A stretch of DNA of 64,000 nucleotides from Candidatus Bathyarchaeota archaeon (GTDB lineage: Archaea; Thermoproteota; Bathyarchaeia; 40CM-2-53-6), in contig CAWHWX010000019.1 of the NCBI GenBank assembly GCA_963833125.1, positions 32,001 to 96,000 on the forward strand. Direction: 5' to 3'. The position numbers and the translations under genes were made by a program. A model generated the notes under the pieces. That model ran no database searches, was not told the origin of the DNA, and saw only the letters and a list, made by a program, of their open reading frames with translations. Below are positions 9,788 through 51,481 of this stretch, one piece after another (position 1 is the stretch's first letter; every line of letters begins with the position of its first letter).

Positions 9788-10927
9788 CTATGGCGCTATT
9801 CCTGCGGTATTGCCAATACCTGCGATTATGACTAGTTCGCCCTCTTTGGTTGTTTCGAGGATTAGCTGTTTGATCTTCTCGATGACGGGGTCAACGGCGT
9901 CTGCGATCTCTTTCTTCATCGTGGTGACTGCTTCGAGGATGCTTTGTTTTATGACGATGGCGTAGACGGGTACGTTGAATTTCGTTGCTTCCTCTTCGAT
10001 CTTGAATCTTTCAGTTCCGATTCCGCCGATTGCGGCGCCGATTCCTTCGGCCACTTCGCCTGTCTTCTCTCCCTCAAGTTTGAGGGCTGCATCTACCATT
10101 ATTATCATGGAAGCCTTTCCGTTATTCTCTTCGAGTACTTGACGAATTGCGTCCCCTGGTTTGCCTACGTTGCCCCCCGGTCCCTCGGCTTTCAAGGTGA
10201 TTACTCTTCTTCCCTCCAATGTCGTCTCTGCGGCGACCATGTCCTTCGGAACTTTTCTGCTCTCGTGGCCGCGCATTAGTCTGTTAGCAACAAGTGGGCC
10301 GGCGCCGTCGCCTATGGGGTGGCCTTCAGCGAAAGCCTTCGATGCCCCCGTATAGGCTTCAGCCTCCTGCATGATTAGGGGAAGGAAGGCTTGAAGTTGA
10401 AATATGACCAGAATGCTGAAAGTTTTCTTACCGAGCAAGTACAAGTGCCGGACGATCTTGAACATGTAGTTTAGAGCCCAAGTGGCTTCGACAAGGTTCT
10501 CGAGATTGTTTACTTGGGTAGGGTTAGCCTCTGGCGCGATTCTCGCCACGTCTGACTTGAATTTCGCTTCCCTAACGTCAAGAAGATGGTCGAACTTGTT
10601 GACGATGCCTGCCGGGTCCATGCTGACGGGTTCAATGAGAAATTGTTCAAGTAACGTGTTTAACTTCGGCGTCGGATCATCCTTCGCTTTGCCTACGTCT
10701 CGAAGGGTCCTTACAGTAAGTGATTTGGCGTCGTTCTTCATGTTCTCAAGTTTTCTTACAGCGCCATCTATCTGCATGAGTGCCAATCGACTTTGAATTT
10801 GCTGTCCGAATAAGAACAGGGCAATGAACGAACCAACCCAAATTATGTTGATTAGGTTAGTGAATATGTTCTGGCCGAATAAGCCGGGACCGTTTTCTAG
10901 GACAATGCTGACAAGTGAAGGAAGCAA
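9788..10927 (-). CDS. DUF1512-family protein
   Basis: N-terminal TM; PIGDGAGPLVA, KAEGPGGNVG, VDAALKLEGE, GIGNTAGI. Confidence 0.8.
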   Translation of the reverse strand: MLPSLVSIVLENGPGLFGQNIFTNLINIIWVGSFIALFLFGQQIQSRLALMQIDGAVRKLENMKNDAKSLTVRTLRDVGKAKDDPTPKLNTLLEQFLIEPVSMDPAGIVNKFDHLLDVREAKFKSDVARIAPEANPTQVNNLENLVEATWALNYMFKIVRHLYLLGKKTFSILVIFQLQAFLPLIMQEAEAYTGASKAFAEGHPIGDGAGPLVANRLMRGHESRKVPKDMVAAETTLEGRRVITLKAEGPGGNVGKPGDAIRQVLEENNGKASMIIMVDAALKLEGEKTGEVAEGIGAAIGGIGTERFKIEEEATKFNVPVYAIVIKQSILEAVTTMKKEIADAVDPVIEKIKQLILETTKEGELVIIAGIGNTAGIAP

Positions 10928-11021
10928 TAAGATTCCTCTGAATTCCTTTTGATACCGCGGGCTGGCACGTTATAAACATTCATTCAATTGACTACACGTC
11001 AATCAACCAAGTCACAAAAAT

Positions 11022-11187
11022 GGAGTCGGCAGCGGTCCGGGACTCGCGTGGCCTTTCGGAACACACTACTACCCGAATCGCCTGAGAGATTCACTTCCGT
11101 GTTTCCGGTACGAGTCTGCGCCCATTTAGCTGCCCGCACTTTCGGAATGGGAACGGGTCCTAGCCCTCAGCTATGGCCGCCAACTCC
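11022..11187 (-). rRNA. rrf: 5S rRNA gene (166 nt) interrupted by a 39-nt BHB-type insert; about 127 nt if spliced
   Basis: Minus strand GGAGTTGGCGGCCATAGC...ACCCGTTCCCATTCCGAA[39 nt]CACGGAAGTGAA...TAGTA...GCTGCCGACTCC; terminal 12-bp helix; 5S signature motifs in order. Confidence 0.93.
11102..11140 (-). other. Putative BHB intron in 5S rRNA loop C
   Basis: TCCG AA^A GTGCGGG...CTCGTAC CGGA AA^C; ligation gives CCCATTCCGAACACGG. Confidence 0.8.
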
Positions 11188-11209
11188 AACAGACGCACTG
11201 TCCAGCGAA

Positions 11210-11217
11210 TAATTAAA
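11210..11217 (-). promoter_or_regulatory. TATA box of the 5S rRNA gene
   Basis: TTTAATTA starts 30 nt upstream of the 5S 5' end; a T5 run follows the 3' end (11016-11020). Confidence 0.6.
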
Positions 11218-11259
11218 CGTAGAGCCCGCCACAATTACTGCCTTCGTGTGGAATGTAGC

Positions 11260-12417
11260 TTGAGAGGGGCGGCCATAATTGGGGTTGGGACGACGTCAAT
11301 TACCGCAGGTTCTGGCAGAAGCCTAACGGAACTGTTCGTTGATGCCGCGAAGCAAGCTATCGACGAGGCAGGAATTGACAAAATTGACTCGATATACGTT
11401 GGAAATATGATGTCCGGTTTCTTACAGAACCAAGAACACCTCGGCGCATTGATGGCCACGGCGCTCGGCAGAGAGGGGGTGCCGACCTACAAGGTCGAAG
11501 GCGCTTGTGCCTCTGGCGGGGTCGCCACAAACGCAGCCGTAAAGGGATTACTTTCCGGACTAGAGGATGTCGTGCTAGTCGGTGCCGTTGAGAAGATGTC
11601 TGGTTATACTACCCCGGAGGTGACGGCAGGGTTGATGATGGCTGAGGATAGAGTCAAGGTTGCTTCAACTGGTGTCACGTTCGTTGGCCTCAACGCCATG
11701 ATCGCCAGACAATATATGCACAAGTACGAGGTCTCCCACGAGGCGATAGCTGAATTCCCGGTCTTATGTCACCAGAATGCATTGGACAACCCGAAAGCGC
11801 AATTTCGAAAGAAGATAGGCGTCCAGGATGTTTTGCAGTCTCCCTTAGTCGCAGATCCGCTCAGGCTTCTAGACTGCTCTGGCATAGGGGACGGGGCTGC
11901 AGCCCTTCTCCTAGCCCCAATGGAGGTGGCCAAGAAATACACGGATTCGCCCGTAGAGATAGCCGCGTCAGCAGTATCAAGTGATACGCTGAGCCTCTAC
12001 CAAAGGCCCGAGATTACCACTTTCGAAGCTTCCAGGAAAGCTTCAGATCGCGCATACAAAATGGCCGGTGTCCAACCCGAAGACGTTGACCTGCTTGAGG
12101 TTCACGATGCATTCTCCATCCTGGGTATTATGGCGCTGGAGGATCTCGGCTTCGCGGCGAAAGGTTCAGGGGCTAAGCTTCTGGAGGAAGGTGAATGTTT
12201 CCGAGACGCTCGGCTTCCAACAAACAGCTTCGGCGGACTCAAGGCCAGAGGCCACCCAGTCGGAGCAAGCGGGGTCTTCCAAGTTGCGGAGCTAGCCCTT
12301 CAACTCAAGAACGAGGCTGGGAAGTGTCAAGTGTCTGGCGCGGAAATCGGTCTTGCACAGAGTGTTGGTGGAATCGGCAGCACAGTCACAGCTCATATTC
12401 TTCGCAGGATGGATTAG
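11260..12417 (+). CDS. Archaeal thiolase (acetyl-CoA acetyltransferase family)
   Basis: VEGACASGG, EVHDAFS, GGLKARGHPVGASG; TTG start at 11260 avoids overlap with the 5S gene. Confidence 0.9.
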   Translation: MRGAAIIGVGTTSITAGSGRSLTELFVDAAKQAIDEAGIDKIDSIYVGNMMSGFLQNQEHLGALMATALGREGVPTYKVEGACASGGVATNAAVKGLLSGLEDVVLVGAVEKMSGYTTPEVTAGLMMAEDRVKVASTGVTFVGLNAMIARQYMHKYEVSHEAIAEFPVLCHQNALDNPKAQFRKKIGVQDVLQSPLVADPLRLLDCSGIGDGAAALLLAPMEVAKKYTDSPVEIAASAVSSDTLSLYQRPEITTFEASRKASDRAYKMAGVQPEDVDLLEVHDAFSILGIMALEDLGFAAKGSGAKLLEEGECFRDARLPTNSFGGLKARGHPVGASGVFQVAELALQLKNEAGKCQVSGAEIGLAQSVGGIGSTVTAHILRRMD

Positions 12418-31503: not shown

Positions 31504-32301
31504 ATGAGTCGGATGAATTCCTTATCACGAAAGAGAATCATCATCTTTGACCTTGACGGTACTCTGACGAAGAGCAAGTCAGACATCGATCATGAAATGG
31601 CTTCGTTGATTTGCGAACTGCTCGGGCTAAAGTACGTTGCAATTACCTCAGGGTGTTCTTTTCAACAGTTCAAAAGCCAATTCCTGAGTGGATTGCCAAA
31701 GAAAACGAACTTACGCAACTTACTTCTGTTTCCGACCTCTTCGTCCAGCGGTTACTATTATGACAGCAAACGACGTCGTTTCTTTCAGGCCTACACCAAT
31801 CTCCTTTCCGAACGGGATGGTCAAGAAAATACTGCGAGCTTTCACAAAGGTCTTCGAGGAAATCGGCTATTCACAACCGGTAAAGACGTACGGACCAGTT
31901 TTCGAGAACAGGGGAAGCCAAGTTACTTTTTCCGCCTTGGGTCAGAAGGCTCCTTTGCGGCTGAAACGCAAATGGGATCCAAATCAACAGAAGCGGCTGC
32001 GGTTAAGAAGACTCTTGAGGGCTCAATTGCTTAACTTCGAGATTTCGATCGGTGGAACCACTTCAATTGACATTACGAGAAAGGGGGTAAACAAGACGCT
32101 ATGCGTAAAGAAGCTGAAAGAGCGATTAGGTCTGAAACACAAAGACATGCTATTCGTCGGGGATGCCCTGTTCAGAGGCGGAAACGACTACATCATGAAG
32201 AGCACAGGTATCCAGGTGCATACTCGGTCCCTGGCCCGAGGCAAACAAAGGAACTGATAACAAGAATAATTCATGGCCGCAATTCCGTACATCCTGTCTA
32301 A
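31504..32301 (+). CDS. HAD-IIB phosphomannomutase-like hydrolase (frameshifts)
   Basis: FDLDGTLTKSKS, ENRGSQVTFSALG, IGGTTSIDIT, FVGDALFRGGND. Confidence 0.8.
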
Positions 32302-51330: not shown

Positions 51331-51457
51331 TGGCGCCCAGGGAGAGGGATTCGAACCCCCGAGGCCCATAAGGGCCACGGGCTTGCATTGAAGTTGACAC
51401 TCAAGCCCGCGCCTTTGGACCATTTTCCATGATGTTAATCCACTCGGCCATACCGGC
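51331..51457 (-). tRNA. Probable tRNA-Ser(TGA) with D-loop intron (51435-51415) and anticodon-loop intron (about 51399-51384)
   Basis: GCCGG.ATGGCCGAGTGG start, long variable arm GGCCC TTAT GGGCC, GGGGG TTCGAAT CCCTC, G discriminator and CCA; acceptor stem and loop are imperfect as sequenced. Confidence 0.75.
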
Positions 51458-51481
51458 TAAAGTATCCCTGAAGCCGATTCC

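Follow-up and report, generated by a model that had tools for sequence, protein, structure and literature searches.

The only gene for 5S ribosomal RNA (rRNA) found in a Bathyarchaeota genome is interrupted by 39 nucleotides (nt) that are quite probably removed from the transcript, with joining of the two exons, as an intron of the bulge-helix-bulge (BHB) type. The gene lies on the minus strand of a stretch of 64,000 nt that we call the window (positions 32,001 to 96,000 of contig CAWHWX010000019.1 from assembly GCA_963833125.1 of Candidatus Bathyarchaeota archaeon; lineage Archaea, Thermoproteota, Bathyarchaeia, 40CM-2-53-6), and the presumed intron occupies window positions 11102–11140. An earlier reading of this DNA (the original prediction) had noticed the insert and treated it as a single curiosity. 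That part did not survive comparison with other genomes: the insert belongs to a widespread family, whose members occupy no fewer than two insertion sites, and on sequence evidence this is probably an as yet apparently undescribed family of BHB introns in 5S rRNA genes.

The 5S_rRNA family (RF00001) gave the sole Rfam match in the window (cmscan, positions 11024–11184, minus strand). The match covers the full model (positions 1–120 of 120) with a score of 62.3 bits, above the gathering score of 38, and leaves a block of 40 nt in the region of helix III and loop C that the model cannot align. Both the sequence and this full-length match bear out the prediction that the minus strand has all of the 5S motifs and, in addition, 39 extra nucleotides at 11140–11102. 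Deleting them leaves 122 nt that agree at every position with the 5S gene of G016, a member of the same genus whose gene has no intron. The G016 gene scores 82.2 bits, as against 62.3 bits for the window gene, which in effect supplies the comparison of covariance-model scores with and without the insert that had been suggested as a check. The product had been put at about 127 nt; that estimate used wider coordinates, and the length within the Rfam boundaries is 122 nt. Likewise, the insert had been placed in loop C, which is correct as to the region; judged from the Rfam structure line and the intron-less relatives, the exact junction sits between the two bases of a conserved 2-nt bulge in the 3' strand of helix III, adjoining loop C. 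Because the insert is bordered by A-runs, both of its boundaries can be moved by up to 2 nt with no change in the product.

The window gene was the single 5S match in the whole genome (3.07 megabases, 88% complete). A second intact copy, which the original prediction had named, together with lack of transcription of the present one, as grounds for abandoning the intron, was thus not found in this 88%-complete genome. Across the order, too, the interrupted gene was the sole 5S match in 21 of 21 insert-bearing genomes, whose completeness ranges from 77% to 98%, and the exons are equally conserved in intron-bearing and intron-less genes. As predicted, the gene has a TATA-like box and a T-run of its own (Table 1), and both are conserved in the genus. 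The same box stands at the same distance in 15 of 15 genus-mates (as TTTATTTATT in one of them), with or without an insert, and a T-rich tract follows CCA or CCG at the end of the gene in genus-mates as well. Two members of the genus, G012 and G021, each have two intron-less 5S genes on short contigs (one of them cut by the contig end), whereas the other genomes of the order have one; the doubling could be a real duplication or could reflect mixed strains in the bins.

The insert and its flanks display the geometry of a BHB motif. A central helix of 4 base pairs (bp), UCCG/CGGA, stands between two 3-nt bulges on opposite strands, AAA and AAC, and is continued by the intron stem GUGCGGG/CUCGUAC. 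Each of these elements was already part of the original prediction, and the geometry is present in 21 of 21 inserts at the same site. If each bulge is cut after its second base and the ends are joined, the canonical 5S sequence results, as had been anticipated, the product being that of the G016 gene. The 3' end of the insert pairs with exon bases of loop C and not with the insert's own 5' end, as is expected for a BHB motif, and the unspliced molecule would therefore have a disrupted loop C.

The full-length minimum-energy fold reproduces the normal 5S structure in helices I, II, IV and V and at the base of helix III. It also contains a UUCCG/CGGAA helix with the AAA bulge and with the intron stem on top, while the exon-2 sequence ACGG takes its native partner in helix III. 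In this fold the 3' site falls in an internal loop, and the motif of the window gene is therefore of the relaxed type. The outer helix is present in the relaxed form (HBh') with three of four pairs, and the strict form (hBHBh') is not attained by the window gene. An alternative fold presents the 3' site as a 3-nt bulge closed by CCAU/ACGG with an A·C mismatch. Six of the 21 genes of the order have CCGU at this position, pair at all four positions and form a textbook hBHBh' motif; the mismatch in the remaining 15 agrees with the weak exon-side helix and relaxed motif of the original prediction. The A-to-G change in loop C that perfects the outer helix (CCCAUU to CCCGUU) was considered as a trait specific to intron-bearing genes and was rejected, since it is shared by 6 of 21 intron-bearing and at least 9 of 66 intron-less genes.

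The survey of related 5S genes that had been proposed as a further check was carried out on the order, all 105 genomes of which were searched and all 87 5S genes compared. Twenty-one genes were over-length (139–188 nt), and all 21 had an insert at the identical site, between CGAA and CACGG. The inserts (17, 18, 19, 20, 26, 28, 35, 36, 39, 56 and 66 nt long) comprise 19 distinct sequences, which come from 5 of the 10 families and 9 of the 25 genera. Within genera their distribution is patchy: 4 of 16 genomes with a 5S gene have an insert in the genus of the window, 5 of 16 in g2 and 4 of 4 in g9 (family f7), where the exons have bases peculiar to the lineage.

The pairing of the central helix is common to all of these inserts, with exon UCCG or UUCG matched at four of four positions by insert bases −6 to −3 (CGGA, CGGG or CGAA) in 21 of 21 genes. 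The combination of a complete central helix with at least three contiguous stem pairs was found for 12 of the 21 in the proposed register, for none of the 21 at shifts of 1–4 nt in either direction, and for 17 of 21,000 shuffled sequences. When pairs were counted over an alignment of 23 genes with inserts at this site, 91.5% of cells were paired (98.8% for the central helix alone), as against 19–49% when the strands were slid by 1–3 columns. G070 and G074 have exon UUCG together with insert CGAA, which is a double change from C-G to U-A; the UUCG is already present in five of six intron-less members of their genus.

The history of the insert in the genus of the window could be followed at a single locus, as 14 of 14 genus-mates with compared flanks are syntenic with the window on both sides of the gene. 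The insert is missing from the two closest genus-mates, G016 and G019 (about 83% identical to the window at this locus), while the more distant G015 (74%) has a homologous 39-nt insert that is identical at 33 of 39 positions. Common ancestry is visible in g2 as well, where the 3' part of the insert (...CUCGUACCGGAA) is shared by inserts of 26–56 nt. The simplest reading of these comparisons is an old intron that has been inherited vertically and has undergone many precise losses, which would match the behavior of a spliced intron and would not in itself prove splicing. We accordingly propose that the 39-nt insert belongs to a family of introns of 17–66 nt at this site, devoid of open reading frames (ORFs) and frequently and precisely lost within the order.

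A DNA run from a sediment metagenome (X1), which alone among the runs compared contains the locus, includes a 735-nt contig that joins position 11101 to position 11141 and skips exactly 39 nt. It has 25 letters on the exon-2 side (the bridging limit being 31), and its upstream flank has 2 differences in 120 nt. The contig may come from an intron-less allele in a near-identical strain; it is a weak hint, and we have not used it as evidence.

Metagenomes provided a larger collection of inserts. Our scan required only the two exon edges with any 10–40 nt between them, and 75 contigs matched. They hold 51 distinct inserts, of which 44 are absent from the genomes. In 51 of 51 the central helix is paired at four of four positions, the first base is A and the end is CGGRRN; none lacked the motif. 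Eighteen of the distinct inserts belong to the 38–39-nt family of the window. Within that family, the central helix and the 7-bp stem are paired in 100% of cells (28–39% in slid controls), two stem positions vary among UA, UG and CG and among GU, AU and GC, and the loop varies freely. The stem of this family may extend by four further pairs past a bulged A (11132–11129 with 11119–11116): 73.6% of cells pair there, and three variants change the usual A·A mismatch to C-G or U-A.

Inserts of the same kind are found outside the order and at a second site. We examined a class sample of 151 genomes (116 from other orders) and a phylum sample of 151 genomes (131 from other classes). The class sample yielded four further over-length 5S genes. 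One of them (G115) has its insert at the site of the window gene, and the other three, all from f29/g57, have 33-nt inserts 9 nt upstream of it, after CCCGUAC at the 5' edge of loop C. The phylum sample yielded 13 over-length genes, all from one order; in that order (26 genomes) the 5S gene is over-length in 16 of the 24 genomes with a 5S match. One of the 13 examined has its insert at the site of the window gene and 12 at the upstream site. Upstream inserts thus occur in two classes and are the majority state in one order. Within f38/g92, whose exons also have bases peculiar to the lineage, 12 of 15 genomes with a 5S match carry an insert.

The upstream site has a BHB geometry of its own. Exon CCGU pairs with insert GCGG at four of four positions in 13 of the 15 genes and at three of four in the other two, the bulges are AC/A and AR/C (the slash marking the cut), and the stem has 3–7 bp in all 15. 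No gene of the 15 retains the geometry when the register is shifted by 1–3 nt, and 8 of 15,000 shuffled sequences pass. For three genomes (G163, G233 and G310) this site was assigned by explicit pattern, the top solution of the boundary scan being a spurious hairpin elsewhere in the gene. With the upstream inserts removed, the sequence reads ACCCGUACCCRUUCCGAAC, which is also that of intron-less relatives. At this site there is practically no exon-exon helix (one or two of four pairs). Taken together, the genomes and metagenomes make it rather likely, if less so than for the window intron itself, that 5S rRNA hosts widespread and ancient mini-introns of the tRNA type in uncultured archaea of the TACK group (Thaumarchaeota, Aigarchaeota, Crenarchaeota and Korarchaeota), at no fewer than two sites flanking loop C, both of which are found in two classes. 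With that same degree of assurance, we would put their frequency at about one-quarter of 5S genes in one order and about two-thirds in another.

Slight lengthening of a different sort was seen in family f23, in which the 5S genes of G120 (L216) and G125 (L217) are 126 nt long, with six extra bases (AAAUAG) at helix II and loop B and no BHB-like ends; this addition is probably a small retained expansion. A third 5S gene of 126 nt occurs in G159.

The genome encodes both an endonuclease and a ligase of the kind that splicing of a BHB intron would call for: there are two genes of the EndA family (PF01974, 84.1 and 52.3 bits) and one for RtcB (PF01139, 574 bits). The two EndA genes lie at C34:61053–61622 and C14:18721–19326 of the genome. 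The 189-residue EndA can be aligned from end to end with chain B of the structures 3p1z, 3ajv and 2zyz and with 2cv8 (E values from 5e-40 to 5e-28), all of which we take to be crenarchaeal endonucleases, three of them heterotetramers. It keeps a Tyr...His...Lys pattern that is presumably the catalytic triad. The 201-residue paralogue is far more divergent (best E value 1e-13) and, by eye, appears to have neither that His nor that Lys, which would suit a structural subunit. The pair is predicted to constitute the alpha and beta subunits of a heteromeric splicing endonuclease. Heteromeric endonucleases accept relaxed BHB motifs at noncanonical positions.

The demand for such an enzyme is apparent from the tRNA genes. 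ARAGORN found 7 of them when run without its intron option and 31 when run with it, 27 of which are interrupted, although predicted introns of 545–1218 nt look doubtful. The genome clearly seems to depend on the tRNA-splicing pathway. Within the window, no tRNA was detected by the default run, and the intron option predicts a tRNA-Val(AAC) with a 40-nt intron at 51335–51471 on the minus strand (contig positions 83335–83471).

We envision the following pathway. Transcription from the gene's own TATA-type promoter would generate a 161-nt precursor, in which the UCCG of loop C would pair with the CGGA near the 3' end of the insert to form the BHB motif. The alpha/beta endonuclease would cut after the second base of each bulge. 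RtcB, acting as in the known pathway, would join the exons to yield the canonical 122-nt 5S rRNA, and the 39-nt intron would be released, probably as a circle. Every prediction of splicing that could be examined at the level of sequence came out as the original proposal of a spliced intron would have it, as regards product, recurrence, register, compensation, presence and absence, and enzymes.

Might the insert instead stay in the mature RNA as an extra hairpin extending from helix III and loop C, as happens in some Firmicutes and in Halococcus morrhuae? Most of the insert does pair with itself, as this would have it, but its 3' end pairs and co-varies with exon bases of loop C (21 of 21 genes in the order and 51 of 51 metagenome inserts), and it is not a self-contained module. 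Moreover, conservation is confined to the BHB elements, with no constraint on length (17–66 nt) or loop sequence, precise loss in the closest relatives restores the canonical sequence, and the same geometry recurs at a second site. The sequestration of loop C, together with the free variation of length and loop, is the main argument against retention, which we regard as very unlikely. Alternatively, the insert could be excised and the ends left unjoined, giving a 5S RNA in two pieces of 44 and 78 nt, after the fashion of the intervening sequences of bacterial 23S rRNA. The comparative evidence supports recognition and cleavage and is silent on ligation, and fragmented rRNAs are known in bacteria (examples are also cited in the accessible text of PMC7812874). 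Helices I and II and the base of helix III would, however, be all that kept two such pieces together, and the genome encodes RtcB. Furthermore, in all characterized archaeal BHB substrates known to us, cleavage is followed by ligation. A 5S RNA in two pieces strikes us as very unlikely.

An origin unrelated to splicing would be the footprint of a small mobile insertion, its ends representing a target-site duplication, in a gene that is decaying or in which the insert is tolerated; an artefact of assembly would be another. The patchy distribution of the inserts is compatible with a footprint, and since UCCGGA is palindromic, pairing and direct repetition are partly confounded at the site of the window gene. 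In register, however, the end of the exon and the end of the insert share 1–3 of 6 letters, while the central-helix pairs average 3.96 of 4. The upstream site, which is not palindromic, has the same pairing nonetheless, and this disposes of the worry about a target-site duplication. The exons of intron-bearing genes are conserved, moreover, and in 21 of 21 genomes no 5S copy was found besides the interrupted one. Finally, the presence of inserts in 21 independent assemblies and 75 metagenome contigs excludes an assembly artefact. These explanations are largely refuted, and we give them scarcely any credence.

Removal of the insert by splicing is the explanation that we favor, and several observations nevertheless weigh against it. 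Transcription, cleavage and ligation are all deduced, and three metatranscriptome runs gave no contig on 10950–11260, a result that is uninformative as to expression, splicing or habitat (four runs were listed, with small shares of 0.11–0.16, and three were compared). As the exons of the window gene are identical to those of intron-less genus-mates, a spliced read would in any case be indistinguishable from the genes of the latter in mixed communities. The outer helix is imperfect in the 15 genes of the 21 with the A·C mismatch, and the 3' cut site in the full-length minimum-energy fold is an asymmetric internal loop and no clean 3-nt bulge. Only 12 of the 21 genes have a stem with at least three contiguous pairs, the other nine requiring one mismatch or bulge, and the first stem position is unpaired in 5 of the 51 metagenome inserts. 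Independent compensatory events in the central helix are few (one C-G to U-A and several U-A to U-G), and since related sequences share ancestry, our counts overstate independence. Fold energies are no better than those of shuffled sequence (z from −0.67 to −1.88), and the z-scores, being nonsignificant, were rejected as thermodynamic support. Lastly, the catalytic residues of EndA were judged only by eye from the alignment.

In archaea, BHB introns have been described from tRNAs, from 16S and 23S rRNA and from a few messenger RNAs. The inserts described here most resemble the introns of archaeal tRNAs, including those at noncanonical positions in Crenarchaeota and other TACK archaea: both are short and ORF-less, with a 4-bp helix, two 3-nt bulges, cuts after the second base of each bulge, relaxed forms that accompany an alpha/beta endonuclease, and patchy gain and loss. 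They differ from tRNA introns in that the host is 5S rRNA and the central helix is built from bases of rRNA loop C. The BHB introns in the 16S and 23S rRNA of Thermoproteales and their relatives are also removed by the tRNA-splicing endonuclease. Those introns are usually hundreds of nucleotides long, often with ORFs for homing endonucleases, unlike the 5S inserts, which measure 17–66 nt, have no ORF and lie in an independently transcribed gene. EndA and RtcB act on rRNA precursors at the BHB processing stems of pre-16S and pre-23S RNA as well, which ties ribosome biogenesis to tRNA splicing. Those stems serve to excise whole rRNAs with circular intermediates, whereas the 5S motif lies within the rRNA, and it is the rRNA itself that would be spliced.

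The retained expansions of Halococcus morrhuae and of Thermoanaerobacterales, Halanaerobiales and Clostridiales likewise add sequence to a 5S gene. According to the accessible text of the systematic survey of 5S insertions by Stepanov and Fox (2021; PMC7812874), helix III and loop C are a known hotspot for insertions, and the retained expansions are self-contained, have no noticeable complementarity to the core and in at least two cases were shown to be kept in the mature RNA. The present inserts, in contrast, pair with the core in BHB geometry, and they do not figure in the text of that survey. That text reports archaeal 5S insertions only in Halobacteriales and warns that some inserts might be excised like introns; the terms "bulge-helix-bulge," "Crenarchae," "Thaumarchae" and "Bathyarchae" do not occur in it. 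As far as their accessible text goes, a review of archaeal ribosome biogenesis (PMC8339473) and a study of endonuclease substrates (PMC7714728) bring up 5S rRNA only to note its separate transcription or in the role of loading control, a 2026 study of rRNA circularization in uncultured archaea describes excision and circularization for 16S and 23S and not for 5S (PMC12918454), and a survey of circular RNAs in Sulfolobus reports weak whole-molecule 5S circles and no intron (PMC3326292). The suggestion that the intron might be undescribed agrees with this search: no description of a 5S intron was found in the searchable literature, a scope that excludes most subscription journals and the supplementary tables of PMC7812874.

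If the inserts are spliced, the last class of rRNA joins the substrates of the splicing endonuclease. Maturation of 5S rRNA in abundant archaea of soil, peat and sediment would then depend on the tRNA-splicing endonuclease and RtcB, and assembly of the central protuberance of the large subunit would be tied to the same two enzymes. The inserts mask loop C until they are removed and could in this way act as a built-in checkpoint on assembly. More than 60 distinct mini-introns at two fixed sites would, given splicing, also offer a compact system for studying the recognition of relaxed BHB motifs, intron gain and precise loss. Finally, as the insert costs about 20 bits of covariance-model score, annotation pipelines and 5S databases may under-call or mis-size such genes.

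Table 1. Features of the interrupted 5S rRNA gene and inserts at the upstream site (a slash within a bulge marks the proposed cut)
Feature	Position in window	Strand	Basis or remark
Complete 5S rRNA gene, 161 nt with insert	11024..11184	-	RF00001; only 5S found in genome
Exon 1, 44 nt: helix I 5' strand, helix II, helix III 5' strand, loop C; ends UUCCGAA	11141..11184	-	Colinear with and identical to intron-less G016 gene
Exon 2, 78 nt; starts CACGGAAGU	11024..11101	-	Rfam alignment and comparison with intron-less relatives
Proposed BHB intron, 39 nt	11102..11140	-	Removal gives G016 sequence; boundaries picked by BHB register
Central helix H, 5' strand, exon UCCG	11143..11146	-	Pairs with 11104-11107
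5' bulge AA/A, proposed cut after second base	11140..11142	-	Unpaired (3-nt bulge) in minimum-energy folds, both local and full-length
Intron stem h', 5' strand GUGCGGG	11133..11139	-	7 pairs with 11108-11114
Intron stem h', 3' strand CUCGUAC	11108..11114	-	7 pairs with 11133-11139
Central helix H, 3' strand, intron CGGA	11104..11107	-	Pairs with exon UCCG
3' bulge AA/C, proposed cut after second base	11101..11103	-	Small internal loop in full-length fold
Outer helix h, exon-2 strand ACGG	11097..11100	-	Partner CCAU (11147-11150, one A·C mismatch) or CCGU of native helix III
TATA-like box TTTAATTATT	11208..11217	-	-33 to -24 relative to 5S 5' end; putative promoter
T-run directly 3' of gene (GACUCCA-UUUUU)	11016..11020	-	Likely terminator
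Upstream-site inserts, 17-33 nt	About positions 35-67 of each 5S gene		L224-L233 (f38/g92), L221 and L223 (f45), L212-L214 (f29/g57)

The 5S gene is not linked to the other rRNA genes, those for 16S and 23S lying together on another contig (52720–54269 and 54445–57498) with a spacer of about 175 nt. The 16S match is 1550 nt long (1478 for the model) and the 23S match 3054 nt (2987 for the model). No discrete BHB insert was seen in the inspected part of the 16S alignment, which has only small expansions at helix tips (about 8 and about 17 nt); 23S was judged by match length only. Two protein comparisons serve as leads to the lineage and support no more than a TACK or Thermoproteota-type archaeon: Candidatus Bathyarchaeota is the commonest taxon for PheRS-alpha, and Nitrososphaerota, with Bathyarchaeota next, for TrpRS. 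The search for archaeal amoA gave no match in this or any other genome compared, and with the genome 88% complete that absence is uninformative.

The neighbors of the 5S gene encode proteins. Upstream is a gene of the thiolase family (Thiolase_N, Thiolase_C_1), whose longest ORF (11173–12417, plus strand) shares 12 nt, on the opposite strand, with the 5' end of the 5S gene and extends over the stretch immediately before it; the actual start of the thiolase gene probably lies further downstream. On the 3' side lies a gene (9788–10927, minus strand) for a DUF1512 protein with both domains (E values 1e-51 and 3e-67), and the synteny alignments within the genus extend through this side of the locus.

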